From the sequence record NC_028901.1: a stretch of 43,900 nt of DNA. One strand, given 5' to 3'. How positions within the stretch are numbered: the stretch's first letter is position 1; every line of letters starts with the position of its first letter. The notes beneath the pieces are model-generated. The model saw only the letters and a list, made by a program, of their open reading frames with translations, was not told the DNA's origin and did no database searches. A program made the position numbers and the translations under genes. Positions 2,239 through 43,900 of this stretch are shown here, piece after piece. Source of the stretch: Escherichia phage slur05.

Positions 2239-2284
2239 AAGGGTGTCCGGTTGGACGCCCTTTTTAATACCTGGAGACAACACG

Positions 2285-3890: not shown

Positions 3891-3906
3891 TGCAACCAAC
3901 TATATT
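3878..3906 (+). promoter_or_regulatory. Sigma70-like promoter TTGCAA-17-TATATT
   Basis: -35 TTGCAA 3878-3883, 17 bp spacer containing TGCAACCAA, -10 TATATT 3901-3906; upstream of gene 3953-4474. Confidence 0.5.
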
Positions 3907-3952
3907 AACCACATCGGGAGGCAATACCGCCTCCCCTAAAAGGAGACAAACC

Positions 3953-4474: not shown

Positions 4475-4482
4475 TGCTAATA

Positions 4483-4498
4483 GCGGGCTTCGGCCCGC
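4483..4498 (+). other. Stable UUCG-tetraloop hairpin without a U-tract
   Basis: GCGGGC-TTCG-GCCCGC directly after the stop of gene 3953-4474; no T-run, so more likely a stability/processing element than a terminator. Confidence 0.35.
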
Positions 4499-4516
4499 AT
4501 CAATGAAGGATCCACA

Positions 4517-5092: not shown

Positions 5093-5115
5093 AAAAAGGG
5101 GCCGCACTGCCCCTT
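5089..5115 (-). terminator. Rho-independent terminator after the tail fiber gene (also faces the convergent plus-strand gene)
   Basis: Stem AAGGGGC/GCCCCTT with loop CGCACT, followed on the minus strand by a T7 tract. Confidence 0.6.
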
Positions 5116-5119
5116 CTCG

Positions 5120-6805
5120 TTATGCTTTAGTCAGTGCCTCGACCGCGACTTTCAAATCAGCTACGGCAGCTTTCAGTTCTGCAATCTCGGCCTTGTTCGC
5201 CTCGTCACGCGCTCTTAACGCTTTAATAGCTGCCAGGCAATCCGCGACAAGCGGGTTTAAGTCTAACGTCATCATCCCCGGCACTTCGTGGTCGTGCACA
5301 TATTCCCTGTCAACCGTTGCCGCTTGCTGTGCAATGATTCCGCGTCGCGTAGATCTCTCCGGTTCGTCAAACGTGTACCGGAACAACTTAAACTCAAGGC
5401 GGTTGATGTTATCCAGTGCCGCTTCCACATTTAAATTGCCCTTAATATCCTTCACACGGGCGTCAGACTTACCAGCATCTTGCACCCGCGACCATGTTTT
5501 CGTTGTGGAGGAGACTTGCGCGTTGCCGGAGTCGTTCCAACGATAGTAGAGCGCTGGCAGCGCGCCGACCATAACCTGTGCGACACGAGAGGGCGTGTAG
5601 GCAGATTGAAATCCTGCTCCGTTTACCGGTGCCCATGTAGGGGTGCTGATCGACTGCGAGAAAAAGCAAGCCTGCGTATTTGGGGGCGCGTATGAGTATT
5701 CAATCCCAAGTCCGTAGTCCCCCGGCTTCACCGCTTCGCACCAGTTCTGCAGCGCACCATTCTCTTTAGTTCTCCAGAAAAAACGGCTTTGACGTGCGGC
5801 GAACTGTACCGCGTAGTTTTCCTCAAACTTAACATGCAGACCCGCCGCCGAAGTACCCTCGATCGGTGATCCGAAGACGGTAGCGAGATAGGTGCTTCCG
5901 TCAACTTCGTTCCAACTTCCGCCAGGTGCGTTGCCGTTAATGCCATAATCCCCAACGCCGATTGCGTTGAGGGTCTGCCGTGCCGCTGATTTGTCAGTGA
6001 GGTCGGTTAGGTTGTTACTTACCTTAGCGTATTGAGACGGGTCAACCTCGTTTTTGAATTGTTCGGCCTCGTTCCTGTACCCCTGAGCGGCATCACGGGC
6101 GGCTTGCGCGTCCGTCTTCGCGGTGTTGGCCTGATCGCGAATAACTCCGGTATCCGTCTTAATTTGGTTGGTCTGGTCCTTGATGGCCTGCGTATCCGTC
6201 TTAATCTGGTTGGTCTGCGTCTTGATGGTATTGGTGGCGTCGTGGATAGCCTGTGTGTCCGTCTTAATCTGGTTGGTGTTGTTGTAGATGACCTGCGCGC
6301 CTTCCTTGAATCCTTTAGCTTCGTTCCTGGAATTCTGCGCGGCTGCTTCCGATGCGGCGGCTTGTTGCTGCAGGTCGCGCATTTCCACTGGGTCGATCTG
6401 TTTCATCAACTGCGACAGGTATCCCCATGACATACCCTGCATCACCTGCCCGTTCGGCAGCGTGACCGTGATTTCTTCAGCGTCGCCGAAGATTGCACGC
6501 CAGTTGTTTTCATCTGCAATCATCAAGCGCAATGCTTTTTGAGCCTGTACGGTAACGCCCATCGTTGCCAGTGACATGGTATCGCGCTTAACACCATCCC
6601 ACGCAAGGCCGGTTGCCGTTGGGCCGTCGAACGGCAACACCAGCGTGAGCGCGGTTGCGCTTTCAATGGACGCGATTGCCACGGTGTATGGGACTTGTCC
6701 TACCACCAGCGTCAAGAAGTCGCCAGCTTTAAACGCAGTAAACGTTGTGCCGACCCCTACTACAGCCTTGCTATTATTCGTTACAGATAGCGTACCCGCT
6801 GCCAT
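5120..6805 (-). CDS. Tail fiber protein
   Basis: 561 aa with Gly/Thr-rich N-terminus, tandem repeats TNQIKTDTQAI(K/H)DQ, C-terminal coiled coil; sits in the tail module with a strong terminator at 5089-5115. Confidence 0.65.
   Translation of the reverse strand: MAAGTLSVTNNSKAVVGVGTTFTAFKAGDFLTLVVGQVPYTVAIASIESATALTLVLPFDGPTATGLAWDGVKRDTMSLATMGVTVQAQKALRLMIADENNWRAIFGDAEEITVTLPNGQVMQGMSWGYLSQLMKQIDPVEMRDLQQQAAASEAAAQNSRNEAKGFKEGAQVIYNNTNQIKTDTQAIHDATNTIKTQTNQIKTDTQAIKDQTNQIKTDTGVIRDQANTAKTDAQAARDAAQGYRNEAEQFKNEVDPSQYAKVSNNLTDLTDKSAARQTLNAIGVGDYGINGNAPGGSWNEVDGSTYLATVFGSPIEGTSAAGLHVKFEENYAVQFAARQSRFFWRTKENGALQNWCEAVKPGDYGLGIEYSYAPPNTQACFFSQSISTPTWAPVNGAGFQSAYTPSRVAQVMVGALPALYYRWNDSGNAQVSSTTKTWSRVQDAGKSDARVKDIKGNLNVEAALDNINRLEFKLFRYTFDEPERSTRRGIIAQQAATVDREYVHDHEVPGMMTLDLNPLVADCLAAIKALRARDEANKAEIAELKAAVADLKVAVEALTKA
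6100..6300 (-). repeat. In-frame tandem repeats (~33 bp units) inside the tail fiber gene
   Basis: Repeated CCGTCTTAATCTGGTTGGTCTG-type units encoding TNQIKTDTQAIxDQ. Confidence 0.6.
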
Positions 6806-16862: not shown

Positions 16863-16926
16863 TATGCAGTCCCCTTTTTTATGCAGTTGCCGATGGATAT
16901 TGTATCAGCTATTTCAAAACAAACCT

Positions 16927-17246
16927 TATTCAGTCTCAGACGAGGGGGGCCACTGACCCCCGTCTAGTCTGAAAGACTGGGGTGCTGTCCCGCTGTCCCG
17001 ATCGGCTGAAAACCGCGGCAGCACTGGCGGGGACGGGGTGCTGTCCCGCTTTGTCCCGCCTCTTGTTTGTCCCGCTTTCTGTCCCGTTTGTTTTATGCAC
17101 GAAAACCGAATACGTATGCACTTTTGTGGGGTGGGACAAAACGGGACGTCCCGCTTGTCCCGCTTTTTATTATGCAATGGAAGTGAGTAGGTATGCAGTT
17201 TCACAGGGGTGGGACAAAACGGGACGTCCCGCCTGTCCCGCTTCAT
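16927..17246. repeat. Structured non-coding repeat element, copy A: hairpin, GTCCCGC iterons and two GGGACGTCCC palindromes
   Basis: Core 16927-17100 is ~85% identical to 33700-33870; bulged stem-loop AGACGAGGGGGGCC...CCCCCGTCT, at least 6 GTCCCGC iterons, sub-repeat GGGTGGGACAAAACGGGACGTCCCGCNTGTCCCGCTT at 17127-17167 and 17207-17245. Confidence 0.8.
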
Positions 17247-32664: not shown

Positions 32665-32736
32665 TGTTCTGTCTCCTTAAAGTTTAACCGTGCTGCGGGG
32701 AAGTTTAATGTTTTGCTAATCGATGCTTTCATAATC

Positions 32737-32991
32737 TTACTTTCTGTACCTGTACATGTTGTCGCCGTCTGCGGCTAGTGGGGACTCTTTCGCCCATACA
32801 GGCACGCCGCACATCAGCGCGCAAAGTTCCTCGGTAGTGTAGTCGTCGACCTCATCAAGCTCGTCGGCTGTAAGGTTGTCGCCGTCGCATACCGTAGCGA
32901 TGCCGTAATGGGTGTAGTCGTCATAGCAGGATACGAGGTCGATAAACTCCTGCGAATACCCTGCCATTAGCGTTATTTGCATTGGCGTCAT
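32737..32991 (-). CDS. Small protein paralogous to the DNA polymerase C-terminus
   Basis: Last ~36 aa (DDYTTEELCALMCGVPVWAKESPLAADGDNMYRYRK) nearly identical to the polymerase C-terminus; upstream LVSCYDD aligns to polymerase motif C LSVHDE with catalytic residues changed. Confidence 0.5.
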   Translation of the reverse strand: MTPMQITLMAGYSQEFIDLVSCYDDYTHYGIATVCDGDNLTADELDEVDDYTTEELCALMCGVPVWAKESPLAADGDNMYRYRK

Positions 32992-33478: not shown

Positions 33479-33699
33479 TGTTCAGTCCTCATGTTGGGGT
33501 GCAACCAATATAGCAAGGTGCCAGGCGGAACGCAACCAATATTAATCACGCGCATGAAAAAGTTGATCGCTATCTGCTGTGACTGCAAACCGCATTTTTC
33601 ACTTCGCATAATGCAACTCGCATTGGTTGCCTAGTTCATCCGCGACCGCACTTCGCATCATGCTGCCGTGTATTTTGCAATCCCCGGATTTTATTCAGT

Positions 33700-33870
33700 C
33701 TCAGACGAGGGGGGCCGCTGACCCCCGTCTAGTCTGAAAGACTGGGGGTTGTCCCGCCTGTCCCGCTCCTCTCCAGGCCGCGCCATACGGGGCGGGACGG
33801 GGGTGCTGTCCCGCTTTGTCCCGCCCCTTGTTTGTCCCGCTTTCTGTCCCGCTTACTTTATGCAATAAAA
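33700..33870. repeat. Structured non-coding repeat element, copy B
   Basis: Same hairpin and GTCCCGC iteron series as copy A, with inverted GGGAC...GTCCC pairs; lies in the 533 bp non-coding region beside the primase-helicase gene. Confidence 0.8.
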
Positions 33871-33973
33871 CTGCATAACTATTCATTATATTTACACTAC
33901 ACGGCAACCAATACGACCCGATAAAAACACTCAAAATGGCAACCAATGCGCGCAAAATTTAACCTTTTAGCGA

Positions 33974-34012: not shown

Positions 34013-36277
34013 TTAATCTTTCAGATCGTCATCGGTCGCAGAAAGCGTGATGGGTATATTCGTTTTAATGACGATATTCGACGACCCATAGATGGCCCCG
34101 GTGTGCGGATCTGTATAAAAACCGAGCACGCCGCGCTCCACCATATCGTCTATTGCCTTCGTCGATGTGCCACCTTTTGCCAATCCCGCCTGGCGGACAA
34201 TTGCCGATTTACTGAATCCGGTATGGTCCGGGTTATCTTCCATCAGTTTTTCCAGTGCCGCATAAAGCACTTTCTCTTTTTCATTGCGCGGTCCTGCGGC
34301 GTTCTCATCCTTAACTGCGGCCTTGCCCGCGGCCTTCGCCTGTTCGATGGCGAACGGTGCCAGGGCGACAGGTACGAGATAAAGAGTCTCGTCGCGTGGC
34401 GTGGATGCAATTGGCTTGACGTCCCAACCGGCAACCACGTCGCCGAAGTCAGGCCCGGTGCTGGTGGACTGGTGTGATTCGAACGCTTCGGACTTGCGGA
34501 GATCCACCTTAACCTTGCACTTGAGCAGGACGAAGCCGCGCGGCGCTTGCTTGATGCCGTTACGCGCCTTTTCGTGATACAGGTTCAATTGGCCCGGCTG
34601 ATTGTCGTCCGGTTGCTCGAGGAAGAACGCAGAATCGACAGCGCCATGCAGCGCGCCGGACCCACGGGGAGATCTGCTGCCGTTTGCACCCTTCGCCGGG
34701 TGGTGGATGACGCCCGCACTGCCGCCTGTATTTTCCGCAATGGCCTTCAGCGCTTTGACCACTTCACCCATATCGCTGGCGTTGTTCTCGTCGAACGGTT
34801 TAGCATCGGCGGACCGCAGCGCAACAGTCTGGTTGAGTGAGTCGAACGCCACCAGGCCAACCGGCTCGCCGTTAGCGGTGCGGTTGATGAAGCTGATAAC
34901 TTCACGCAAGCCGGATTTGCTGGTGATATCCCAGCCGCGTGATTGCAGATCGATAATGTGCAGCTTGTCCAGGTCGTGCTCATATTTAATCTGCAATGCT
35001 TCCTTACGCTGGTTGGAGGCTTCGCCACCTTCCGCGTCGAAATAGAAGCAATGAGACTGGACGACCTTCGCGCCGCCGAACGGAATCCCCGCGGCAACCG
35101 CACCCATTTGCCCCAGCACATAGAACGACTTACCGATGTTCGACTCACCGGCAAGATACCAGGTCGATTTAAAGTTAATCAACCCCTCGATGATCGGGTC
35201 GTGCTTGCTGAACAGTGCAACCGGCTCGTTGTCCAAGTCTGCGTCCGTACATCCGCCGTACTCGTCGCCGTCTCCGACCGCATCAACGATATGCGCATAG
35301 CACGATTCCACTTCCTCGTCGTCCAGTCCTGGGAGGATGGCGGCGATTTGCTTACGTGACATGTTGTGCGGTTCGACGTTCAGGTGGTCCGGGATCCCGA
35401 TAAGACGTAGCGCCAGGTGCTGGTGTCTGTTCAGTTCGGAACAGCACTCGTTGCCGGTGTGCATACACTTGAAACGGATCTCGCCATCCTTAACCATGAT
35501 AGCGGTGGACCCTTCGCCACTATGCAGATGTTCGTTCGGGCACGGCACTTCATAACCGCGACCAGAAGATAACTCCTCGAATCCGGCCTGGAAGCACCAG
35601 TCCAGAATGCCGTCTGCCACTGCGTCGTCGCCATGGGTAAGCTCGCGGCGTACTTCCTCTTTTTCCACTCCCAGCTTATCAGCCAGGCGAAGCAGACGAC
35701 GGACGCGGGCACGTTTGCCGTAGTGACACTTAACAACCGATTGCTGGTGAGGCAGGTACATAAGGCGGTTTGTGTCTTTCGTGCAATCGTCGAAGTCCAC
35801 ATCTGACAGGCCCAGTTGGTGTAATAGTGCATACTGGACGCGGCCCAGGTCTTCAGCCGGTACAGGCTTGTCAGTGAGCACCAGGAAACGAGCGCAACGC
35901 GTGCCACCTTTCAGCGGGTGGCGATCGCCGGTTGTGGTGTGAAATACATGTTCCAGTCCCGCGTCGATGAACGCCTTACGGCAGCGGCGCAGGGTGCGGG
36001 TGTCGGTACGGTCAATATCGAAGAACAGGATCGAGCGATCCACCGCACTGGTCTTGCGGCGTAATCCGTCACTGGTATAAGCCACAATCCCATCAGCCTT
36101 ACGCTTGCGGCGCGCATACTCCGCTTTATCTTCCGTTTTGTTGATATGCACCGAGGAGATTTCTTTCGCATCATTGATAAATTCGAAAAACTCTTCGGTA
36201 GTCATCTGGAAGTTTTCCGCCCTGGCTTTTTCGCCTTTTTTAGCGGGTCGTGTTACAGCGAATTTAATCAAGCTCAT
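34013..36277 (-). CDS. Primase-helicase (primase/prim-pol-like N-terminus plus P-loop helicase)
   Basis: 754 aa; N-terminal Asp-rich motif (LFFDIDRTD), Cys/His cluster (CPNEHLH...C...NECC), Walker A LAGESNIGKS, Walker B-like LVAFDSLNQ, sensor GVIHHPAKG. Confidence 0.7.
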   Translation of the reverse strand: MSLIKFAVTRPAKKGEKARAENFQMTTEEFFEFINDAKEISSVHINKTEDKAEYARRKRKADGIVAYTSDGLRRKTSAVDRSILFFDIDRTDTRTLRRCRKAFIDAGLEHVFHTTTGDRHPLKGGTRCARFLVLTDKPVPAEDLGRVQYALLHQLGLSDVDFDDCTKDTNRLMYLPHQQSVVKCHYGKRARVRRLLRLADKLGVEKEEVRRELTHGDDAVADGILDWCFQAGFEELSSGRGYEVPCPNEHLHSGEGSTAIMVKDGEIRFKCMHTGNECCSELNRHQHLALRLIGIPDHLNVEPHNMSRKQIAAILPGLDDEEVESCYAHIVDAVGDGDEYGGCTDADLDNEPVALFSKHDPIIEGLINFKSTWYLAGESNIGKSFYVLGQMGAVAAGIPFGGAKVVQSHCFYFDAEGGEASNQRKEALQIKYEHDLDKLHIIDLQSRGWDITSKSGLREVISFINRTANGEPVGLVAFDSLNQTVALRSADAKPFDENNASDMGEVVKALKAIAENTGGSAGVIHHPAKGANGSRSPRGSGALHGAVDSAFFLEQPDDNQPGQLNLYHEKARNGIKQAPRGFVLLKCKVKVDLRKSEAFESHQSTSTGPDFGDVVAGWDVKPIASTPRDETLYLVPVALAPFAIEQAKAAGKAAVKDENAAGPRNEKEKVLYAALEKLMEDNPDHTGFSKSAIVRQAGLAKGGTSTKAIDDMVERGVLGFYTDPHTGAIYGSSNIVIKTNIPITLSATDDDLKD

Positions 36278-36287
36278 TGCCGTTGCC

Positions 36288-36617
36288 TTACTTTGAAGTT
36301 TTATTATTGCGTACCCAGGAGCGCACTGTGCTCTGATTAATTCCGGTCAACTCGGCGATCATTGCCCATGACTTTCCCTCATTGCGCAAACGGATAACCT
36401 GCTTTTTGTATTCTTCCATTTCTTCATTGTGTTTTTGCAGCTTGCTTGCTGCCGTGCCGTTGAGCAATTCCAGCTTCGCGGTAAGCTCCTTCTCAGCACG
36501 CGATAATCTGGACACTTCAAATAACAGAGTATCCACCGCATTTGTGTAATACCAGGATTTACCCGCTTCGCCGCGGATTGCATTAGATAACACTTCAATT
36601 GCTTCTTTGATATTCAT
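36288..36617 (-). CDS. HTH DNA-binding protein (putative transcriptional regulator)
   Basis: C-terminal helix-turn-helix (SWAMIAELTGINQSTVRSWV); coiled-coil middle; heads a divergent regulatory region carrying an operator-like palindrome. Confidence 0.55.
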   Translation of the reverse strand: MNIKEAIEVLSNAIRGEAGKSWYYTNAVDTLLFEVSRLSRAEKELTAKLELLNGTAASKLQKHNEEMEEYKKQVIRLRNEGKSWAMIAELTGINQSTVRSWVRNNKTSK

Positions 36618-36630
36618 AATTCAGTCTCCT

Positions 36631-36647
36631 GTTGGTTAATGACCAAC
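36631..36647. promoter_or_regulatory. Operator-like inverted repeat GTTGGT-N5-ACCAAC in the leader of the HTH regulator gene
   Basis: Perfect 6 bp arms separated by 5 bp, between the putative promoter (TTGACA at 36671-36676 on minus strand) and the RBS. Confidence 0.4.
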
Positions 36648-36746
36648 GAAACTACACCTAAAACTGCATGGTGTCAAATCCTTTGGATATTGAAACGGGC
36701 GCGCACGCGTGTAATAATAATTCCCGTCTCATTGTCTCTTATTGGT

Positions 36747-36782
36747 TAGCGCCGTCGCATTTTGCCTCGGCGCTTTTTTTTT
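36747..36782 (+). terminator. Plus-strand intrinsic terminator inside the divergent regulatory region
   Basis: Stem AGCGCCG/CGGCGCT followed by T10; no annotated plus-strand gene upstream. Confidence 0.5.
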
Positions 36783-36793
36783 GAAATTAGTTG

Positions 36794-36823
36794 TTGACAC
36801 CCATCCTGCAACCAATCTATCAT
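36794..36823 (+). promoter_or_regulatory. Sigma70-like promoter TTGACA-18-TATCAT for the charged-protein operon
   Basis: Consensus -35 TTGACA 36794-36799, -10 TATCAT 36818-36823; spacer contains TGCAACCAAT. Confidence 0.55.
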
Positions 36824-37019
36824 TCACTCCGTCGACAGGATGCAGGACGCAAACTGGAGAGGGGCAACGCAGGGGCCGGATCGAAGTGTCAGGATTCCCA
36901 ACCGTGATTATATAACCAGGTCCACTACCCGAACGGGAGAACGCGCAACCTGGCAATATGTTAAGGCCACCGACGAAGTTAACTGCCGACACCTAAACTT
37001 AACCAATCGGAGATATACC

Positions 37020-37538
37020 ATGTTTGAGCAAATCGTAAACCTGATCACTCGCGGCGTAGTAGCACTGGAAGTCATCGCTAAGCATTATGAAACCGTTGGC
37101 GCTGCCGTTGGTAAGCAGGACGACAAGAAGCCGTCTAAGGCCAAAAAAGAAGTTGTCGAAGATGGCGACGATGAAGCCGAAGACGAAAAACCGGCTAAAG
37201 CTAAAAAAGCACCGGCGAAGGGTAAGGCCAAAAAAGAAGTCGTAGAAGATGACGACGACGAAGACGCCGAAGACGAAAAACCGGCTAAGGCTAAAAAAGC
37301 ACCGGCGAAAGGCAAAGGTAAGAAAGATGCCGATCCGCTGGCAGAGATGCGCGACGAAATCAAACAGTATGCCGCGATTATCGCCGGTGGTGATGACGAC
37401 GATGCTAACGACGAATTTGACGACCTGCTGGAAGCGTTCGAGATCAAATCAATCGCCAAGCTGGAAGACGACGACGTCGAAGACTTCCACAAAGATTTAA
37501 AAGAAATCGTCGAGACTTATTTCGAACTGGAAGACTAA
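37020..37538 (+). CDS. Charged repetitive protein (Lys/Ala-rich repeats alternating with acidic blocks)
   Basis: GGAGA RBS; promoter TTGACA-18-TATCAT upstream; internal repeat KKEVVEDxDDExEDEKPAKAKKAPAKGK x2; acidic C-terminal half. Confidence 0.6.
   Translation: MFEQIVNLITRGVVALEVIAKHYETVGAAVGKQDDKKPSKAKKEVVEDGDDEAEDEKPAKAKKAPAKGKAKKEVVEDDDDEDAEDEKPAKAKKAPAKGKGKKDADPLAEMRDEIKQYAAIIAGGDDDDANDEFDDLLEAFEIKSIAKLEDDDVEDFHKDLKEIVETYFELED
37140..37300 (+). repeat. Direct ~75 bp tandem repeat inside the charged-protein gene
   Basis: AAAAAAGAAGT(T/C)GT(C/A)GAAGATG...GAAGACGAAAAACCGGCTAA(A/G)GCTAAAAAAGCACCGGCGAA occurs twice. Confidence 0.6.
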
Positions 37539-37542
37539 TATC

Positions 37543-37668
37543 ATGGACTATGAAATGAGAATCATGCTCGATTTCATAGCAGAAAATTGGGCGGCATTCA
37601 CCGCCTTCTGCGAAGAAAGAGGCGACGACCCGGACGAGGTTTATAAACAACTCGGCGGTGAAGATTAA
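37543..37668 (+). CDS. Hypothetical small acidic protein (41 aa)
   Basis: ATG 4 nt after the upstream stop; followed by intrinsic terminator 37676-37704. Confidence 0.35.
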   Translation: MDYEMRIMLDFIAENWAAFTAFCEERGDDPDEVYKQLGGED

Positions 37669-37675
37669 TATTATC

Positions 37676-37704
37676 CGGCCCGCATATTAGCGGGCCTCTT
37701 TTTA
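37676..37704 (+). terminator. Rho-independent terminator after the charged-protein operon
   Basis: Stem GGCCCGC/GCGGGCC, loop ATATTA, then TCTTTTT. Confidence 0.65.
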
Positions 37705-37716
37705 GAGGACGAGACA

Positions 37717-37968
37717 ATGGCACGCTTCACGCTAATCGAGGCGGTGGACTCCCGCGACCAACGCCCATATTATTGGCTATTCGAACGCATCGGCAATTTT
37801 CGGTCGCGCGTGGCTGTAATAGACAAACGCCGCAACACCCCCGCGCAAATTAAGCGCACCACCTTTACTAATCCCGACTTTTATATTTGGGCCGATTCCA
37901 ATCTGGAATATGTTCGCTTCGCCGTTGCATCAGAAGCAAGAACAATTGACCGCTGGGAGACAAAATAA
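37717..37968 (+). CDS. Hypothetical protein (83 aa)
   Basis: GAGGA RBS (GAGGACGAGACAATG); basic protein. Confidence 0.45.
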   Translation: MARFTLIEAVDSRDQRPYYWLFERIGNFRSRVAVIDKRRNTPAQIKRTTFTNPDFYIWADSNLEYVRFAVASEARTIDRWETK

Positions 37969-38147
37969 TGAAATTCTTCGTCCTGGCAACATGCCACAAA
38001 TTAGACGACCATTGCTCTTTTATTGTTGAAAACACCAACGAAAGCAATTGCTTTGCGGACGCACAAAATGAAGTTAAGCGCCGCGGCGAAAAAGCGGGCA
38101 AGGCTAATGTGAAATATGTAATTGTCCAGTTTACACGGGTGGAATAA
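37968..38147 (+). CDS. Hypothetical small Cys/His-containing protein (59 aa)
   Basis: ATG overlaps the upstream stop; stop overlaps the downstream ATG (TAATG); below the 60 aa cutoff of the supplied ORF track. Confidence 0.35.
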   Translation: MKFFVLATCHKLDDHCSFIVENTNESNCFADAQNEVKRRGEKAGKANVKYVIVQFTRVE

Positions 38148-39577
38148 TGGCGATTAAACCAAAACGTAAAACGCAATCCGGTAGCAACACGGAGCATTCA
38201 TTACTCGGCCCGTCCGGGTCTAAAAAATGGATGGGTTGCCCCGCCGCCCTGGTGGTGGAAAAAGATATCCCGAACGAATCCGGGCAAGCGGCGATTAACG
38301 GTACGAGTATGCACACCGTATCTGAAGTCGTGCTCAACCGCATCATTGCCGGTGAGAAGATGATAACCGCGAAGACGTACAAAGGGTGCTACGTCGAGAA
38401 TGAAGGCAAGGGGCCAGTAAAGGCGCACCCGAAAGCGCCGAAAGGCGGCGTACTGGTCAACGACGACATGGTGAAACAGTGCGATGCGTACATCGACCAC
38501 TGGCGACCGCTCCTCGAAGTGGCAGAGTTTGTCCAGCTTGAGATGCGCGCCGATCTGACCCGCGTCCTTCACTCAGACTACGAGATCGACGGCAACCGGG
38601 TTAAGACGTTCGGTACTGCAGATATGGTCATGGTCATGAAGAAGACCGACGGTACGTACATGCTGATTGTTGGCGACCTGAAGACTGGGTGGCATAAGGT
38701 CGAGGCGAAAGAAAACAAACAGCTTATGTTGTATGCGCTGGGCCTGCTGCGCAAGCTGAAAACCATGTACGACATTACGACCGTGCGCCTGGTTATCTTC
38801 CAGCCGTATTGCGGCGGGGCGTCGGAGTGGGATATTTCGGTAGAAGCCCTGGAGATATTCGCGAAGTTTGCGTCCAAGCGTGCTATCGCCGCCCTGGAAG
38901 CGTACGCCCGCGGCAAAAAGGGACTAACCCGTGCCGACTTCCGACCGAGCGTTGATGCGTGTCAGTGGTGCAGATTTGCGGATCAGTGTAGCGCCCGCGC
39001 TAAGGCTGCAATCGACACGATGACCCCACCAACGGCAACAGACGAAGACCTGGGCGACGACGTGAGTATTGCGACAGAGGAAGAATGCGCCAATCACGAC
39101 CGCAATATGGCCCGCGAAGCCCGCAAAGCGGCACGACGTGCTAAGCGTGGCAAGAAAGAAGCGGCCCCCGGCGCTATGACCGCCGCAGAACTGCGCAAGG
39201 CTTATGAAGGCCTGGACGCAATGCGCCAGCACATCAAAGCTATCGAGTCCGCGGTATTCAAAGCGGTAATGGCGGGCGATGGCGAATCGCTGGGCCTCAA
39301 GATGGTTGCCGGTAAGGAAGGGATCCGTAAGTGGGCGGACGAGAGCGAAGTTATTGAAATCTTCACGAAGGCCCGGATCAAGCGCGATGTGATGTACAAA
39401 GAAACATTGCTCAGCCCTACGGATGCCGAGAAGGTACTGAAGGACGAAAAACCGAAAGTGTGGGCGAAGCTGTGTGATAAAATCACGCGCGCACCTGCCA
39501 AACCGGTGTTAGCACCAATCGACGACCCGCGCCCTGCGTGGTCGGAAGCTACTGACGAGGACTTAAGCAATGAATAA
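38147..39577 (+). CDS. PD-(D/E)XK nuclease, DUF2800/Cas4-like
   Basis: N-terminal LLGPSGSKKWMGCP, nuclease core (GTADMVMV...GDLKTGWHKVEAKENKQLMLYALG), Cas4-like Cys cluster (CQWCRFADQC); charged C-terminal extension. Confidence 0.6.
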   Translation: MAIKPKRKTQSGSNTEHSLLGPSGSKKWMGCPAALVVEKDIPNESGQAAINGTSMHTVSEVVLNRIIAGEKMITAKTYKGCYVENEGKGPVKAHPKAPKGGVLVNDDMVKQCDAYIDHWRPLLEVAEFVQLEMRADLTRVLHSDYEIDGNRVKTFGTADMVMVMKKTDGTYMLIVGDLKTGWHKVEAKENKQLMLYALGLLRKLKTMYDITTVRLVIFQPYCGGASEWDISVEALEIFAKFASKRAIAALEAYARGKKGLTRADFRPSVDACQWCRFADQCSARAKAAIDTMTPPTATDEDLGDDVSIATEEECANHDRNMAREARKAARRAKRGKKEAAPGAMTAAELRKAYEGLDAMRQHIKAIESAVFKAVMAGDGESLGLKMVAGKEGIRKWADESEVIEIFTKARIKRDVMYKETLLSPTDAEKVLKDEKPKVWAKLCDKITRAPAKPVLAPIDDPRPAWSEATDEDLSNE

Positions 39578-39812
39578 AGTATTCGCAATCTTATTGATGT
39601 TTTTGCTCGGAGCGCTGGGCTTTATCCTGCATTGCGTGCAAGGCGTGTTAATGGTGGCGTGGATGATTCGGCATCCGACCCGCTGGCTGGATGACGGCTA
39701 TAGCGAAGTTGCCGTCGATTGGGTGGGGACGAACATCGACCGCCCGCCGTTAAGCTGGATCGAGAACGCTACCGACTACGTTACCAGAAATCTTTTTAAT
39801 GAAAATGCTTGA
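39570..39812 (+). CDS. Small membrane protein (80 aa)
   Basis: Hydrophobic N-terminus (VFAILLMFLLGALGFILHCVQGVLMVAWMI); overlaps the upstream stop. Confidence 0.4.
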   Translation: MNKVFAILLMFLLGALGFILHCVQGVLMVAWMIRHPTRWLDDGYSEVAVDWVGTNIDRPPLSWIENATDYVTRNLFNENA

Positions 39813-39837
39813 CCGCTTAGGCGCAACCAAGTAAATT
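39809..39837 (+). promoter_or_regulatory. Promoter-like element TTGACC-17-TAAATT upstream of the SSB gene
   Basis: -35 TTGACC 39809-39814, -10 TAAATT 39832-39837; GCAACCAA motifs in and after the spacer. Confidence 0.4.
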
Positions 39838-39902
39838 GGCAACCAAGCCGAACGGGGTGGCTTCCAATAACCCCGATGCATGTGAAAATGAGGAATTGGA
39901 AA

Positions 39903-40685
39903 ATGGCTAAAGTCAACCTGAAAAATGTGCGCGTATGCTTCCTGAAAATTTGGGAACGTGATACCCCTAAACAGGATGGACAAAAACCGGCATACCGTGC
40001 CGTGATTCTTCTGGATAAAGAAGATCCGCAGGTGGACAAAGTGGAAGCGGCAGCGCGCGCAGTGCTCACCGACAAGCTGAAATCCGAGAAGAATGCCGAT
40101 AAGTGGATGGACCGCCACTACGCCCAGGATTCTAAGGAATGCGCAGTGCGCGACGGCGACGAGCGCGATGAAGTAACCGAAGAATTCGAAGGCATGTTGT
40201 ATATCAACGCCAAATCGTTCAAACAACCAATCATTCAAACGTCACTCGGCGAGAAGCAGACTGAACAAGGTCTGACCATCGACGGCGACGAGATTGAAGG
40301 CCAGGAGATCTACTCCGGTTGTTATTGCAACGTGTCCCTTGATATTTGGGCGTGGAACAACACCAACGGCAAGGGACTCGGTGCTGGCTTGCTGGGTTTA
40401 CGCTTCCGTGATGACGGTGAAGCCTTCGGCGGTGGCGGGTCTTCATGCTCCGATGAAGACCTGGACAACGACGACGAAGACGAAGCACCGCGCAAGGCTA
40501 AGAAGTCAAAACGTCGTGATGACGATGATGAAGATGACAAGCCGCGCAAGTCCAAGAAATCCAAGCGCCGCGATGACGACGACGATGAGGAAGATGAAAA
40601 ACCTCGCAAACGTCGTAAGCCACGCGATGACGAAGATGAGGACGACGACGAAGACGAAGCACCACGCAAACGTCGCCGCCGTTAA
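39903..40685 (+). CDS. ssDNA-binding protein (DUF2815-like) with charged repeat tail
   Basis: GAGGA RBS; promoter TTGACC-17-TAAATT (39809-39837); partner of DUF2800 nucleases; C-terminus has DDDEDE/PRKxKKSKRR repeats; terminator 40704-40727. Confidence 0.5.
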   Translation: MAKVNLKNVRVCFLKIWERDTPKQDGQKPAYRAVILLDKEDPQVDKVEAAARAVLTDKLKSEKNADKWMDRHYAQDSKECAVRDGDERDEVTEEFEGMLYINAKSFKQPIIQTSLGEKQTEQGLTIDGDEIEGQEIYSGCYCNVSLDIWAWNNTNGKGLGAGLLGLRFRDDGEAFGGGGSSCSDEDLDNDDEDEAPRKAKKSKRRDDDDEDDKPRKSKKSKRRDDDDDEEDEKPRKRRKPRDDEDEDDDEDEAPRKRRRR

Positions 40686-40703
40686 GGGCAAAGCCCACTA
40701 TTC

Positions 40704-40727
40704 AAGCCCGCTTAATGCGGGCTTTTT
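40704..40727 (+). terminator. Rho-independent terminator after the SSB gene
   Basis: Stem AAGCCCGC/GCGGGCTT, loop TTAAT, then TTTTT. Confidence 0.65.
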
Positions 40728-40743
40728 AATAGGACAATGAAAA

Positions 40744-40914
40744 ATGCGTATTAAAGCCAGCGAAGTAAAAGTCGGGATGAAAGTATGGTCCAAGCTACTG
40801 GGGGAATATTTCACAGTTGCCGAGATTCGCAACAACGGCGAAGAGATCACCCTGTCAGACGGCATCTTCTCCATGATCGGCAGCGCTGACGCCGTAGTGA
40901 GGATAAAGCAATGA
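40744..40914 (+). CDS. Hypothetical small protein (56 aa)
   Basis: ORF whose stop overlaps the polymerase ATG (ATGA); below the ORF-track cutoff. Confidence 0.35.
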   Translation: MRIKASEVKVGMKVWSKLLGEYFTVAEIRNNGEEITLSDGIFSMIGSADAVVRIKQ

Positions 40915-43202
40915 AAGACTTCGAACGTCTGTTTCTCGACACCGAGACATTTAGCGGGGTGGACCTGAAGAAAGTGGGGGCGTACGCCTACGCAGAGCAC
41001 CCAACCACCGAGATTATGATTTGCACCTACGCCATCGACGAAGGCCGCGTGCAGACATGGGATTGCACTGAATCCCCCACAATGCCGCGTGAACTGCGCA
41101 AGGCGCTCCGCCATGTATCCCGCAAGAAAGCAAAAATAGTGATGGCTAACGGCCTCCTGTTTGACCGCCTGGTTATCCGCGAGAAGTGGGGCATCGACCT
41201 GCCGGTAAGCCAGATCGAAGACACCATGATTATGGCCTTTCGCCACGCGCTGCCCGGTAGCCTCGATATGCAGTGCCAGGTGCTGGGCGTTGACGCAGAG
41301 CACGCGAAAGATAAGGCAGGCAAGGCGCTGATTAAACGATTCTGTAAGCCCACCCCTAAGACCTACAAAATCCGCCGCTACACACGCGAGACGCACCCCG
41401 AAGAATGGGCCAAATTCTTGCGCTATGCCGCGCTGGATATTGTTGCCATGCGTGAAGTCTACTGGCGCATACCGGACTGGGGCAACTCACCGAAGGAAGA
41501 TGAAATCCTGCTCATCGACCAGTTGATTAACGACCGCGGCTTCTACGTTGACGTTGACCTGGCGAACGCCGCGATCAAAGCGGTACAGGCGCATAAGGAA
41601 GAATTGAAGGAAGAAGCCTGGGAGCGATTTGGCGGTAAGCTGACAGGCAATGACTTCCTGCCAATCCTGCGTGATATCGCCCCGGCGTTCACGATCCACA
41701 ACGCGCAAAAATCCACGCTTAACGACCTTCTTGAAGACCCGGACTTCCCCGACGAAGGCAAAGCGCTTATCGAAATGCGCCTCGGCGCGTCATCAACGGC
41801 ATCGACTAAATACAATCCGCTCGTTAATGGCCTGTCTGCCGATGGTCGCCGTCGTGGGTGTCTTCAGTACGGCGGCGCAAAGCGCACGCTACGCTGGGCC
41901 GGTAAAGGCTTCCAGCCGCAAAACCTGGCACGCGGCGAGTACAGCGACGACCACGAAGGGAAGATTAAGCGCCGCGAAGGCGAGAGCGACGTCGCTTTTT
42001 GGGTCCGGTCGCACATGCTCACCAACGGCATCAACTCCCTGTTACGCGGGACTGCACACTGGGCGTATGACATATCGAAGTTAACGGCCTCGACCGTTCG
42101 CGGGTGCATTATTCCGGCTAAGGGTAAGAAGTTTGTTGTAGCTGACTATTCTAACGTGGAAGGGCGTGGCCTCGCCTGGATCGCTGGTGAGAAAACCGCG
42201 CTAATGGTGTTTAGGGCCGGTCGCGATATTTATTGTGAAACTGCCGGTAAGATGTTCGGCCTTGACCCGGAATACATTAAAGCCAACCGCAAAGACCTAC
42301 GCCAGATTGGTAAGGCGTGTGAGTTGGGACTTGGCTATGGCGGCGGCGTGGCTGCGTTCTTGCAGTTCGCTAAAAACCTGGGCCTCGACCTTTACGCGAT
42401 GGCGGACGTCATGAAGGGCACATTCCCCGATCACATTTGGGCAGCGGCTAAACGGGGTTATGAGTACGCCCGCATTAACGAAGCGAAGCGACCGCCGAAG
42501 CCGGGCAAGAAGGACGAGCGCCCGACTTACATACTGCCTAAAAACGTTTGGCTGACCTGCGACGCGATCAAACGCATGTGGCGTGAGGCCCACCCGAAGA
42601 CGGTAGCCTTTTGGGCCGAGCTTGAGGACGCGGTGTTGTGTGCAATCCGCAATCCTGGCAAAGCGTACTGGGCTGGCGCGAACGTTCGCCCGGATGGTAA
42701 GAAAGCGCTCAAGATAGTCCGCACGAAGGCGAAGCATGACCCAACCTTCGACGAGGAACGCGACGACCCGAACGCCGCGGGGTGGTGGTTGAAAATTGAG
42801 TTGCCGTCGGGGCGTATTATGAGTTATCCGGGCATTGCGCTGTCTGTCACTACCGAGATCGACGAAGATACTGGCAAGAAACGCACCAGCACCCGCATTA
42901 AATATCAGGGCGAGAATCAGACGACCCGCCAGTGGGGCTTCCAGTACACCTACGGCGGCAAACTCACGGAAAACATCGTACAGGCGCTGTGTCGCGATAT
43001 CCTCGCATGGTCCATGCCTGGCGTTGAAGCTGCGGGATATGAGATCGTACTGTCCGTACACGATGAACTGATAACCGAAGTGCCGGATACTGACGACTAC
43101 ACAACCGAGGAGTTGTGCGCGCTGATGTGCGACCTGCCTGTTTGGGCGAAAGGCTTCCCGCTTGCCGCGGAAGGCGACATTATGTACAGGTACAGGAAGT
43201 AA
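40911..43202 (+). CDS. Family A DNA polymerase with N-terminal 3'-5' exonuclease domain
   Basis: Exo motif LFLDTETFS; polymerase motif A DYSNVEGRGLAWIAGE, motif B RQIGKACELGLGYGGG, motif C LSVHDEL. Confidence 0.85.
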   Translation: MKDFERLFLDTETFSGVDLKKVGAYAYAEHPTTEIMICTYAIDEGRVQTWDCTESPTMPRELRKALRHVSRKKAKIVMANGLLFDRLVIREKWGIDLPVSQIEDTMIMAFRHALPGSLDMQCQVLGVDAEHAKDKAGKALIKRFCKPTPKTYKIRRYTRETHPEEWAKFLRYAALDIVAMREVYWRIPDWGNSPKEDEILLIDQLINDRGFYVDVDLANAAIKAVQAHKEELKEEAWERFGGKLTGNDFLPILRDIAPAFTIHNAQKSTLNDLLEDPDFPDEGKALIEMRLGASSTASTKYNPLVNGLSADGRRRGCLQYGGAKRTLRWAGKGFQPQNLARGEYSDDHEGKIKRREGESDVAFWVRSHMLTNGINSLLRGTAHWAYDISKLTASTVRGCIIPAKGKKFVVADYSNVEGRGLAWIAGEKTALMVFRAGRDIYCETAGKMFGLDPEYIKANRKDLRQIGKACELGLGYGGGVAAFLQFAKNLGLDLYAMADVMKGTFPDHIWAAAKRGYEYARINEAKRPPKPGKKDERPTYILPKNVWLTCDAIKRMWREAHPKTVAFWAELEDAVLCAIRNPGKAYWAGANVRPDGKKALKIVRTKAKHDPTFDEERDDPNAAGWWLKIELPSGRIMSYPGIALSVTTEIDEDTGKKRTSTRIKYQGENQTTRQWGFQYTYGGKLTENIVQALCRDILAWSMPGVEAAGYEIVLSVHDELITEVPDTDDYTTEELCALMCDLPVWAKGFPLAAEGDIMYRYRK

Positions 43203-43206
43203 GATT

Positions 43207-43398
43207 ATGAAAGCAGAAATGAGCATTATGCGCGCTGGCGCGACGGACAATGACGAGATTCGAATCGTCATTAGACTGGAACGTGGCAAGACCATTACGG
43301 CACTCGTCACGCCTGAAAACCTGGCGCTGGCACTAACCGTGCGATCGGATATACCGGTAGACCTTCGTCTGCGTAACGTGGAATTGCAGACCAAATGA
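43207..43398 (+). CDS. Hypothetical small protein (63 aa)
   Basis: ATG 5 nt after the polymerase stop; overlaps the downstream start. Confidence 0.35.
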   Translation: MKAEMSIMRAGATDNDEIRIVIRLERGKTITALVTPENLALALTVRSDIPVDLRLRNVELQTK

Positions 43399-43673
43399 CA
43401 CCAGAAGGCAAGATTCAAAGTCACCTGATGCGACGGGTGAAAGAGGTGGGCGGATTCTGCCGCAAACTGGCATGGGAGGGGCGCGCAGGTGCGCCCGATC
43501 TGATTATCATCATCAACGGCAGAATAGTTTTCGTCGAAGTGAAGCGCCCCGGAGGCAAACCGAAGCCGCACCAGGTGCGCGAACATGAACGTATGGCCCG
43601 CCGCGGTGCTGACGTTCGCGTTATCGACACGATAGCCGACTGCGATTTATTGGTTGCTGAATTGGTCGCGTAA
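43395..43673 (+). CDS. VRR-NUC domain nuclease
   Basis: 92 aa with a PD-(D/E)XK core (GAPDLIIIINGRIVFVEVKRPGGKP), typical of VRR-NUC proteins. Confidence 0.65.
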   Translation: MTPEGKIQSHLMRRVKEVGGFCRKLAWEGRAGAPDLIIIINGRIVFVEVKRPGGKPKPHQVREHERMARRGADVRVIDTIADCDLLVAELVA

Positions 43674-43713
43674 CGGTATAGTGTGCAGGTTGGCACTATC
43701 GAGGATTTTAGAA

Positions 43714-43887
43714 ATGGTTGAAGAAAAACGTTGTAGTAATTGCGGATGCATCAAGCCGCTATCCCAGTTCCACAAGTACACCGGCAAGACTGCGCGAAGT
43801 CCAGACGGTCATCGGGCCGAGTGCAAGTCGTGCCGCAATAAAAAAGAGCGCGAACGGCAGCGCCGCTATCGCGCAGAACAAGAATAA
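43714..43887 (+). CDS. Small zinc-ribbon protein (57 aa)
   Basis: GAGGA RBS; four Cys in CxxC...CxxC arrangement (CSNCGC...CKSC); basic C-terminus. Confidence 0.4.
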   Translation: MVEEKRCSNCGCIKPLSQFHKYTGKTARSPDGHRAECKSCRNKKERERQRRYRAEQE

Positions 43888-43900
43888 TCAATACGGCGGG

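Follow-up and report, generated by a model that had tools for sequence, protein, structure and literature searches.

Evidence that replication and recombination genes at the two edges of an Escherichia phage sequence lie in one co-directional cluster on a circular Dhillonvirus map

The 43,900-nt sequence of Escherichia phage slur05 analysed here in full (NC_028901.1; the window) represents, with little room for doubt, the genome of Escherichia phage slur06 (LN881731.1, Dhillonvirus), or that of a near-clone, in circularised form. Because the window is in that case a circular genome cut inside an SNF2 gene and short of 487 bp, the genes at its two ends would belong to one continuous, co-directional cluster. 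With the same high confidence, which applies to the explanation as a whole, we place a rightward early/middle cluster from 37020 to 43900, through the absent 487 bp, and on from 1 to 5092, with a primase-helicase operon diverging from the same control region. This replication/recombination cluster is ordinary and already described; nothing in the window's arrangement is new.

Relation to slur06 and the junction between the window ends

The slur06 record matches the whole window at 99.99% nucleotide identity, with identical gene order. Window positions 1 to 20221 correspond at 100% to record bases 20221 to 1, and positions 20095 to 43900 correspond to bases 44515 to 20709 with two differences, a SNP and a homopolymer indel. 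The SNP, at position 40445, is synonymous and lies in the SSB gene; the homopolymer difference is C5/C6 at about 31258. The two sequences also differ in linearisation point and in the 487 bp that the window lacks. The slur06 genome was assembled with SPAdes (PMC4698387), and the ends of its record share a 127-bp repeat, an assembler overlap across which the window reads straight; this repeat speaks for closure of the assembly graph only, not for permutation of virion DNA.

The right and left window ends fall at record bases 20709 and 20221, respectively, and the record crosses the 487 bp between them unbroken. It completes the hairpin begun at the right window edge and carries, besides a 72-aa ORF (phrog_9291), the opening 77 2/3 codons of the SNF2 helicase. 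The gene is conserved, specifies 474 aa and is otherwise intact; the window edge cuts its codon 78. The junction is unbroken in 155 of 162 related phage records, and the annotated gene order of Zumzum and WFI is the same as that of the window across the cluster. The original prediction had explained the distant helicase either by short intervening DNA or by circular permutation of the source genome, and had named a large unrelated region between the zinc-ribbon gene and the helicase N terminus as what would speak against it. Nothing unrelated lies in the 487 bp. Both explanations hold together since the gap is short and the map is circular, the second as regards the map.

Layout of the cluster and its transcription units

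The predicted module ran from 38147 to 43900, with the SNF2 gene, its 5' end cut off, at 1 to 1192. The genes named are present at the coordinates given, with Pfam and PHROG scores far beyond chance, but the extent was too narrow, as the module also takes in the primase-helicase gene and the run to about 5092. The features are as follows.

34013-36277, minus: primase-helicase, 754 aa (PF13481, E = 5e-20; full-length match to phrog_3228 "replicative helicase-primase," E = 0)
36288-36617, minus: helix-turn-helix protein, 109 aa (HTH_23 and Sigma70_r4_2, E about 2e-6; phrog_9366)
36618-37019: divergent control region, the window's lowest G+C
37020-37538, plus: 172-aa protein, first gene of the rightward cluster (phrog_3127)
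37677-37696, plus: terminator-like hairpin, seven G-C pairs then TCTTTTT (WFI equivalent annotated as terminator)
37717-37968, plus: small conserved ORF, 83 aa
37968-38147, plus: small conserved ORF, 59 aa (phrog_4965 and phrog_9934 are assigned jointly to this pair)
38147-39577, plus: DUF2800 Cas4/AddB-like PD-(D/E)XK exonuclease, 476 aa (PF10926, E = 3.8e-66; PF12705, E = 4e-7; phrog_69 "exonuclease," E = 9e-105)
39570-39812, plus: conserved ORF, 80 aa, hydrophobic N-terminal segment (phrog_11211, E = 5e-52)
39903-40685, plus: predicted DUF2815/T7 gp2.5-type OB-fold ssDNA-binding and annealing protein (SSB), 260 aa (PF10991, E = 3e-31; phrog_112)
40744-40914, plus: conserved ORF, 56 aa (phrog_10102)
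40911-43202, plus: family A DNA polymerase (PolA), 763 aa (PF00476, E = 2e-16; phrog_17, E = 6e-131)
43207-43398, plus: conserved ORF, 63 aa (phrog_1222, E = 1e-33)
43395-43673, plus: stand-alone VRR-NUC nuclease, 92 aa, with D35, E48 and K50 (PF08774, E = 1e-5; PDB 4QBN, E = 1.7e-22)
43714-43887, plus: zinc-ribbon protein, CxxC...CxxC, 57 aa (phrog_5558, E = 4e-16)
43895-43900, plus: first arm of a terminator-like hairpin, GGCGGG-CTTGT-CCCGCC then ATTTTT (remainder in the absent 487 bp)
1-1192, plus: SNF2-family ATPase, 3' 1192 nt of the gene (bases 2-1192 encode residues 79-474 of 474)
1189-5092, plus: continuation of the co-directional cluster, same order in Zumzum and WFI, made up of the next six entries
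1189-1884, plus: C5-methyltransferase-like protein, 231 aa (FDGSG, PPC, ENP)
1881-2204, plus: HNH-like protein, 107 aa
2285-2749, plus: 154-aa ORF, putative "ligase" by its PHROGs label
2736-3245, plus: Dam-type N6-adenine methyltransferase
3420-3890, plus: polynucleotide-kinase/HAD-like protein, preceded by small ORFs
up to 5092, plus: two further ORFs, end of the cluster
5093-5118: bidirectional terminator-like hairpin (WFI equivalent annotated as terminator)

The last hairpin separates the cluster end from a convergent tail-fibre gene (5120-6805, minus). Two sigma-70-like rightward promoters lie in the control region, at 36690-36718 and 36794-36823, on either side of a hairpin and T9 (36748-36783), and the second agrees with the consensus at 11 of 12 positions; the region is almost invariant in slur06, Zumzum and WFI, the exception being a 136-nt indel in the leader. 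The leftward unit, to which the primase-helicase also belongs, opens with the 109-aa helix-turn-helix gene, whose product is a candidate regulator or origin-binding factor. On the other side, the gene for the 172-aa protein carries two copies of a 90-nt tandem repeat (tandem repeat finder), giving alternating H1-like basic (KPAKAKKAPAKGK) and acidic blocks. The zinc-ribbon gene starts at 43714, not 43654; a Pfam scan matched no family to its product, and its database labels conflict (Lar-like, HNH, KilA).

One operon had been expected to continue across the window edges. The genes are contiguous, but a conserved GC hairpin and T-run at the edge make a single operon doubtful, and terminator-like hairpins at 37677 (following the 37-aa ORF), downstream of the zinc-ribbon gene and elsewhere suggest several transcription units instead. 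A further step would be to regard the two ends as separate transcription units or independently acquired modules, with a polymerase/recombination unit ending at the hairpin and a helicase/methylase unit lying next to it. The hairpin that separates the zinc-ribbon gene from the 72-aa ORF, with six G-C pairs and a T-run, does sit exactly between these proposed units; Zumzum and WFI share it unchanged, and the WFI annotation marks it as a terminator. Other hairpins split the cluster further, and the module of Chi-like phages lacks the zinc-ribbon and 72-aa ORFs. However, the hairpin stem is short and there is no sigma-70-like promoter in the approximately 20 nt from the hairpin to the 72-aa ORF; helicase expression would therefore need read-through. 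The cluster genes are also all co-directional and tightly packed or overlapping, and the linkage of polymerase, VRR-NUC and SNF2 genes is held across very distant phages. We consider this separation into two units or modules unlikely, though worth weighing, and prefer one contiguous cluster.

Replication and recombination proteins

Catalytic motifs are intact in the window's replication enzymes, with the Walker A motif of the SNF2 protein (residues 30-34) encoded in the absent 487 bp. The primase-helicase, transcribed divergently from the remaining module, carries AEP-like primase motifs N-terminally (FFDIDR, residues 84-89). A Cys/His zinc motif occupies its residues 246-279, and its AAA_25 RecA-type helicase domain has a Walker A motif, GESNIGKS, at residues 377-384. 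The DUF2800 exonuclease carries a four-cysteine signature (C31, C272-x2-C275-x5-C281) and further motif residues (H56, D159, D177-L-K179, Q192-x3-Y196), all invariant in four orthologues of 27-29% identity.

The DUF2815 ORF spans 39876-40685, but the SSB probably starts at 39903 because a GAGGAA ribosome-binding site precedes that position. Its structural matches are PDB 4KLK, 4JG2 and 5ODJ (E about 1e-11), and ORF6 of phage Enc34 is a ssDNA binder (PMC5686142). Among 22 cluster ORFs, a set that leaves out the 73-aa and 173-aa ORFs, no other SSB family was matched by Pfam or PHROG. The SSB tail is of mixed charge: 77 residues with four repeats of an acidic run, (A/K)PRK and a basic run, ending in RKRRRR. 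The canonical acidic tail of T7 gp2.5 mediates partner contacts; as the tail here is not of this kind, coupling to the polymerase and helicase may differ from that of gp2.5.

PolA has intact 3'-5' exonuclease motifs (D10/E12, N80..D85, Y172..D176) and polymerase motifs A (D412), B (K468, L472, Y476) and C (H717-D718-E719). Residue L472 aligns with F762 of E. coli Pol I, which by alignment places the enzyme in the "Leu762" class as previously defined (PMC6302109). The 3' end of polA is also present as a stray copy. The match of the VRR-NUC protein to PDB 4QBN, the saNUC enzyme of Salmonella phage SETP3, a dimer that cleaves four-way junctions (PMC4103454), makes a dimeric Holliday-junction resolvase probable.

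The SNF2 ATPase is supported by SNF2-rel_dom (E = 1e-10, full-length protein) and phrog_62 (E = 2e-156), and the window retains its motifs DEST (motif II), LTGTP (motif III) and GHGLNLQ. SNF2 enzymes are translocases of duplex DNA rather than strand-separating fork helicases, and the best PDB matches of this one are chromatin remodellers and a Sulfolobus Rad54-like enzyme. Record annotators nevertheless name its product "DNA helicase," and SNF2 is the helicase-family gene most consistently tied to Leu762 PolA in viromes (PMC6302109), which might suggest that the module relies on it, and not on the 754-aa AAA_25 protein, as its replicative fork helicase. We think this improbable, as the genome encodes, at full length, a fusion of primase and RecA-type helicase. 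In HK578, moreover, mutants escaping the P2 OLD defence map to gp46, the primase-helicase orthologue, as well as to its promoter and to a gene adjoining the exonuclease/SSB genes (bioRxiv 10.64898/2026.07.10.737580); the replication-initiation escape mutations fall in the primase-helicase, the likelier fork enzyme.

Position of the break

Dhillonvirus relatives close into circles on assembly and are predicted to use headful packaging, so the break point inside the SNF2 gene is arbitrary. Circular assemblies and predicted headful packaging have been reported for relatives (PMC9022532, PMC13348001), with PhageTerm predicting headful packaging for Opt-212 and UDS3lw. It is extremely improbable that the phage chromosome is instead linear and truly ends at the window edges, by cos or by fixed direct terminal repeats, with contiguity only apparent. 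In favour of such ends, the deposited slur06 record is flagged linear and its termini are not from experiment (PMC4698387). Against them, the edge falls within a codon of an intact conserved gene, slur06 and the 155 related genomes cross it unbroken, relatives are predicted to package by headful, and a pac site would be expected close to the terminase genes, which lie approximately 16 kb off at roughly 26.7-28.6 kb (record annotation).

Comparison with known systems

The closest system is that of the genus Dhillonvirus itself (HK578, SSL-2009a, SO-1, JL1, EP23 and others). Chi-like (Chivirus) and Enc34/"Nazgul-like" siphophages have a divergent primase, DUF2800, DUF2815, family A polymerase, VRR-NUC and SNF2 genes in the same order and orientation, as described for the Enc34 module (PMC5686142). 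In Chi-like phage iEPS5 the primase diverges from exonuclease, gp2.5-like, polymerase, endonuclease and helicase genes, with 28% polymerase identity. In contrast to the cluster here, the Chi-like module has neither the zinc ribbon nor the interspersed small ORFs (80, 56, 63 and 72 aa), its SSB has a canonical short acidic tail, and its helicase gene is followed directly by terminase genes rather than methyltransferases. A duf2800-gp2.5-polA module has been reported (PMC8093625), as has a "Leu762 group I" PolA replisome with RecB-like and SNF2-like neighbours (PMC6302109); the window likewise has the three core genes adjacent and SNF2 downstream. The Leu762 class was proposed as a marker of temperate phages (PMC6302109), whereas Dhillonviruses are reported as lytic only (PMC13348001); the slur06 record annotation contains no integrase-like product.

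The same division of labour may be read in the T7 set of gp4 primase-helicase, gp5 polymerase, gp2.5 SSB/annealase, gp6 exonuclease and gp3 endonuclease I. The polymerase is of family A, as in T7, and the SSB shares structural homology with gp2.5 (PMC5686142) but has a zwitterionic tail. Where T7 has a FEN-like exonuclease, endonuclease I as resolvase and a TOPRIM primase, the phage here has a Cas4-like PD-(D/E)XK exonuclease, a VRR-NUC resolvase and an AEP-like primase; the SNF2 ATPase is additional. Unlike T7, the slur06 record has no phage RNA polymerase among its annotated products.

The octamer GCGGGACA forms two conserved clusters, one adjoining the primase-helicase gene and the second within the tail gene region, 16.8 kb away. 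In satellite phage P4, the alpha protein is a primase-helicase fusion and there are ori and crr iteron loci, where an octamer in direct repeat is likewise grouped into two separate clusters, one of them beside that gene. The likeness is one of layout alone, and a transcriptional role for the clusters is equally possible.

Proposed mechanism of replication

Homology is the basis of each step proposed here. Host RNA polymerase would initiate at the sigma-70-like promoters of the AT-rich divergent region, and the AEP-primase/RecA-type helicase would open the origin and supply primers for synthesis. Copying would fall to the proofreading Leu762-class family A polymerase, and the coating of single strands to the gp2.5-type SSB. 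The Cas4-like exonuclease would resect double-strand ends and the SSB/annealase would pair the tails, a two-component recombinase that may yield concatemers and recombination-dependent replication. The SNF2 ATPase may move along duplex DNA for branch migration or remodelling, the least supported of these steps. The dimeric VRR-NUC would then cut Holliday junctions and branches, after which the concatemers would be packaged by a headful terminase. Starting from a pac site, such packaging would give terminally redundant, partly permuted virion DNA, which would account for the circular assemblies and arbitrary linear start points of these phages.

Results

The split replication module is an artefact of the map cut

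Over all 43,900 bases the window is 99.99-100% identical to Escherichia phage slur06 (LN881731.1), a Dhillonvirus; identities to other members of the genus are mostly 90-95%. With cut-offs for whole-genome nucleotide identity to a classified member of >70% for the genus and >95% for the species, the window can be assigned to both a named genus and a named species. Megablast gave 100% identity to slur06 in the replication region, and in a full comparison window bases 1-20221 corresponded to bases 20221-1 of the slur06 record and bases 20095-43900 to bases 44515-20709, the latter pair differing by a single mismatch and a single gap. At 40445, in the SSB gene, the mismatch is a synonymous A/T difference. 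The sole gap, at about 31258, is a run of five C residues in the window versus six in the slur06 record; located towards the 3' end of a small gene beside the holin genes, it alters the C terminus of that ORF and is probably a homopolymer difference of sequencing or assembly.

The first 127 bases of the slur06 record are identical to its last 127, and the window continues through that join. As slur06 was assembled with SPAdes (PMC4698387), this overlap means that the assembled genome is a closed circle, about 44.39 kb long. Relative to this circle, the window is reverse-complemented, cut inside the helicase gene and 487 bases short. The absent bases complete a hairpin whose first half is in the window, and include a 72-aa ORF (phrog_9291) and helicase codons 1-77 with two bases of codon 78. 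The original prediction offered two accounts of the divided block, a short intervening stretch or a circularly permuted source genome; the slur06 record shows the stretch to be short, at 487 bases, and its assembly to be circular. The prediction had named a large unrelated region between the zinc-ribbon gene and the helicase as the contrary outcome; since the 487 bases hold no unrelated DNA, there is no such region. A 1087-bp probe covering the VRR-NUC gene, the zinc ribbon, the 72-aa ORF and the helicase start was contiguous in 155 of 162 phage records, and the independently annotated Dhillonviruses Zumzum and WFI have the same gene list as the window.

Headful packaging has been predicted by PhageTerm for the relatives Opt-212 and UDS3lw (PMC9022532, PMC13348001). 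By analogy, slur06 virion DNA may be headful packaged, terminally redundant and circularly permuted; such packaging in relatives would account for circular assemblies with arbitrary start points. The split appearance of the module is an artefact of where the circular phage map was cut.

Genes of the replication cluster

ORF listing and profile searches recovered every gene named in the original prediction, including an SNF2 helicase truncated at its 5' end. The predicted span of 38147-43900, with the helicase at 1-1192, has its genes right and takes in only part of the module.

Features of the replication gene cluster, in window coordinates
34013-36277, minus strand: primase-helicase, 754 aa; AAA_25, phrog_3228 over its full length, AEP-like and zinc motifs
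36288-36617, minus strand: HTH protein, 109 aa; precedes the primase-helicase in the same leftward unit
36618-37019, between the divergent units: AT-rich control region with two good sigma-70-like rightward promoters
37020-37538, plus strand: 172-aa protein (phrog_3127); starts the rightward co-directional run
38147-39577, plus strand: DUF2800 nuclease, 476 aa; PF10926 (E=3.8e-66), inside which lies a PD-(D/E)XK match; phrog_69 'exonuclease'
39876-40685, plus strand: ORF of the DUF2815/Enc34-type SSB, likely start 39903; PF10991 (E=3e-31)
40911-43202, plus strand: family A polymerase, 763 aa; Pfam match
43395-43673, plus strand: VRR-NUC, 92 aa; Pfam match
43714-43887, plus strand: zinc ribbon, 57 aa, CxxC...CxxC; PHROG match, cysteines located
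2-1192, plus strand: SNF2-family ATPase, residues 79-474 of 474; 5' part outside the window

The DUF2800, DUF2815 and PolA genes are adjacent and co-directional in this order on the plus strand, with Pfam matches above gathering thresholds, and the VRR-NUC and SNF2 genes follow downstream in the same orientation. In the slur06 record the SNF2 gene starts 336 bp after the VRR-NUC stop codon, with two small ORFs in between. The SSB start at 39903 has GAGGAA 8 nt upstream of its ATG and agrees with the annotation of the public record. A published criterion for this module is that no separate classical ssb gene lies nearby (PMC8093625); in Pfam and/or PHROG scans of 22 cluster ORFs, which left out a 73-aa ORF (3202-3423) and a 173-aa ORF (3953-4474), no SSB family besides DUF2815 was found. 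The module also contains an 80-aa hydrophobic ORF.

Each of the enzymes has its full set of catalytic residues. The DUF2800 protein has D159, D177-L-K179 and Q192-x3-Y196 together with cysteines C31 and C272-x2-C275-x5-C281, and these motif residues and all four cysteines are invariant in four orthologues of 27-29% identity; it is predicted to be a Cas4/AddB-type PD-(D/E)XK nuclease whose C-Xn-C-X2-C-X5-C cysteines may hold an iron-sulphur cluster. The polymerase carries Exo I-III (D10/E12, N80..D85, Y172..D176) and motifs A, B and C (D412, K468/Y476, H717-D718-E719), the complete catalytic set of a family A enzyme with predicted proofreading; the position equivalent to F762 is L472, as in the Leu762 class. 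The 92-aa VRR-NUC has the catalytic triad D35, E48 and K50 without a FAN1-type insertion, and aligns end to end (E=1.7e-22) with saNUC (PDB 4QBN), the closest solved VRR-NUC. saNUC, from Salmonella phage SETP3, is a dimer that cuts four-way junctions, though weakly (PMC4103454). Fold and triad place the 92-aa protein with the stand-alone VRR-NUC type, as a probable Holliday-junction resolvase.

Full-length SNF2 protein, taken from the slur06 record, matches PF00176 (E=1e-10) and, in the PDB, Snf2 and SsoRad54. It has GSGKT (30-34), DEST (131-134), LTGTP (165-169) and GHGLNLQ (389-395); motifs II, III and VI are encoded inside the window, and Walker A/motif I (residues 30-34) in the DNA outside it. 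PDB and NCBIfam sequence searches gave nothing significant for the DUF2800 protein, the primase-helicase, the zinc ribbon, a C5-methyltransferase-like protein or a 154-aa ORF labelled as a ligase; the best match of the primase-helicase was RSF1010 RepA (E=0.49).

Extent and transcription of the cluster

The primase-helicase gene is divergent to the rightward run, and both start from the 36618-37019 region. Past the helicase, the co-directional run continues through C5-methyltransferase-like, HNH-like, Dam-type methyltransferase and kinase/phosphatase-like genes to a bidirectional hairpin (5093-5118) that faces the tail-fibre gene. In the 172-aa protein, two tandem 90-nt repeats encode histone-H1-like KPAKAKKAPAKGK blocks alternating with acidic blocks. 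The 231-aa C5-methyltransferase-like protein (1189-1884), whose start overlaps the helicase stop codon (ATGA), has the C5-cytosine methyltransferase motifs FDGSG, PPC and ENP and no Pfam or NCBIfam match; it looks too short for a normal target-recognition domain. The 154-aa ORF (2285-2749) bears the PHROG label 'DNA ligase' (phrog_10530), which looks unreliable, with no support from Pfam, NCBIfam or other domain searches. Within the tail-fibre gene (5120-6805, minus strand), a repeat with a period of 21/42 nt, present at 6107-6316 as five copies that overlap, encodes the repeated motif TNQIKTDTQAI.

In the control region, a hairpin with T9 (36748-36783) stands about 30 nt beyond a sigma-70-like promoter (36690-36718), and directly behind the hairpin comes a strong promoter (36794-36823). 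The hairpin is stable (z = -3.1), the stretch 36690-36830 is nearly invariant in three Dhillonviruses, and a 14-nt stretch, TCTCTTATTGGTTA, shows complementarity to the 172-aa gene's ribosome-binding region (36999-37013). We speculate that a small RNA of about 60 nt, carrying TCTCTTATTGGTTA, might run from the first promoter to the hairpin and T9. A structured RNA in the leader of about 190 nt of the 172-aa gene was rejected: shuffled sequence folded at least as well (z = +1.69), and Zumzum lacks 136 nt of the leader. An Rfam scan of the whole window at gathering thresholds and a tRNA scan returned nothing.

The original prediction also suggested that the same operon continues across the window edges. 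One co-directional cluster does so; it may or may not be a single operon, as a terminator-like hairpin lies at the edge. This hairpin, GGCGGGCTTGTCCCGCC (GGCGGG-CTTGT-CCCGCC), stands directly after the zinc-ribbon gene and is followed by ATTTTT and then by the 72-aa ORF and the helicase. The window stops after the first arm, which takes up its final six bases (43895-43900), and the remaining 11 nt are in the slur06 record. It is identical in Zumzum and WFI and is annotated in WFI as a putative terminator; the WFI annotation has further terminators behind the equivalent of the small ORF at 37.7 kb and behind the SSB and HNH-like genes. No sigma-70-like promoter was found after the window-edge hairpin, so that helicase expression seems to need read-through. 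It can safely be called a single co-directional cluster of genes, perhaps attenuated at several points.

The SSB has a conserved core and a zwitterionic tail

Residues 8-203 of the SSB form a DUF2815 OB-fold core that matches PDB 4KLK, 4JG2 and 5ODJ (E=1e-10 to 1e-11); the last of these is ORF6 of phage Enc34, which binds single-stranded DNA (PMC5686142). Its C-terminal 77 residues (40455-40685) include 36 acidic and 28 basic residues, arranged as a unit repeated four times, in which an acidic run leads through (A/K)PRK into a basic block, and end in RKRRRR. In this the protein departs from a defining feature of T7 gp2.5-type SSBs, whose tail is acidic, ends in acidic, aromatic or hydrophobic residues and contacts polymerase and helicase. 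Orthologues from Jerseyvirus and Kagunavirus differ in having a single acidic block, or one-unit tail, ending PRRERRR(N)R, whereas those of Chi-like phages and Bacillus phage Carmen17 have canonical acidic tails ending WEDEV and DDDFMS. Because the tail is not purely acidic, gp2.5-like coupling to partner proteins is less likely; the assignment as a gp2.5-type SSB is not weakened by the difference.

Octamer clusters and a duplicated polA 3' end

With 12 copies in the window, the octamer GCGGGACA far exceeds the 1.9 expected, and none of 100 shuffles reached this count. Every copy is on the minus strand and belongs to one of two clusters, at 16986-17241 and at 33750-33852; one further copy is carried by the window-edge hairpin. 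The second cluster is situated 160-260 nt past the 3' end of the primase-helicase gene, and the first in an unannotated gap of about 700 nt upstream of the tape-measure gene. Both are within or beside a direct repeat of about 195 nt (16926-17120 and 33691-33885, 82% identity), which ends, after each cluster, in a conserved GC hairpin, AGACGGGGGTCAGYGGCCCCCCTCGTCT. Both clusters are conserved across Dhillonviruses: at least 10 Dhillonvirus-sized IMG/VR contigs each have two copies of GCGGGACAAAGCGGGACAG, a 19-mer of two octamers, and Zumzum has six GCGGGACA copies in the matching position next to its primase-helicase gene.

These clusters could be candidate sites for the primase-helicase or the 109-aa HTH protein, by analogy with the alpha primase-helicase of satellite phage P4 and its iteron loci ori and crr. 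They could equally be targets of a middle or late transcription factor, or an RNA element. That they are the iterons of a bipartite origin serving the replication module is a tentative suggestion, and rather an unlikely one. We found no Dhillonvirus replication origin described in the literature searched, and no description of the GCGGGACA clusters in the searchable literature.

A separate repeat involves the polymerase gene. An inverted repeat of 134 nt (32714-32847 and 43092-43225) is 84% complementary, and its first arm duplicates the polA 3' end, about 37 codons with the stop, and runs on into the beginning of the gene that follows. Joined onto the end of a small ORF (phrog_15977), the copy creates a chimeric 84-aa ORF (32737-32991, minus strand) that ends in DDYTTEELCALMCGVPVWAKESPLAADGDNMYRYRK. 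It belongs to an insertion of about 190 nt which, among about 157 Dhillonvirus records, is confined to 3 (slur06, P-GXEC-L2P5 and Lzu_P1). Given this rarity, we set aside a role as functional mimic of the polymerase C terminus and read the copy as probably a recombination scar. Recombination between the arms would in principle invert a 10.2-kb replication segment.

Discussion

The module studied here is of a kind already described. It is known as duf2800-gp2.5-polA (PMC8093625), and the replication module of Enc34 includes a VRR-NUC protein and a helicase (PMC5686142). Relatives of the polymerase are present in 1554 phage records. The Chi-like phage iEPS5, with 28% polymerase identity, has a divergent primase followed by exonuclease, gp2.5-like SSB, polymerase, endonuclease and helicase genes, and Bacillus phage Carmen17 keeps the order exonuclease-SSB-...-polymerase. 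In viromes, PolA proteins of the Leu762 class have 'RecB-like' and SNF2-like neighbours, and this class has been proposed as a marker of temperate phages (PMC6302109); Dhillonviruses, however, are reported to be strictly lytic (PMC13348001).

How the module works can be proposed from homology at every step, experiments existing for relatives only. The primase-helicase would initiate replication and unwind the template, the proofreading polymerase would synthesize DNA, and the gp2.5-type protein would coat and anneal single strands. The Cas4-like nuclease may resect ends; if so, nuclease and annealase could together make up a two-component recombinase and generate concatemers. The SNF2 ATPase might remodel or migrate branches, and a VRR-NUC dimer would resolve junctions ahead of packaging. 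In the Dhillonvirus HK578, P2 OLD escape mutants fall at three sites: the helicase-primase gene, its operon promoter and a gene beside the exonuclease and SSB genes (bioRxiv 10.64898/2026.07.10.737580).

In summary, we describe the replication-gene cluster of a published genome, belonging to a widely described module, and the finding as such is already known. Its value is mainly that of a negative result: recognizing the artefact of a circular map stops the window edges being taken for biology. Modest new Dhillonvirus replication biology might lie in the hairpin-punctuated cluster, in the iteron-like octamer clusters and in the zwitterionic SSB tail that Jersey- and Kaguna-like phages also have.
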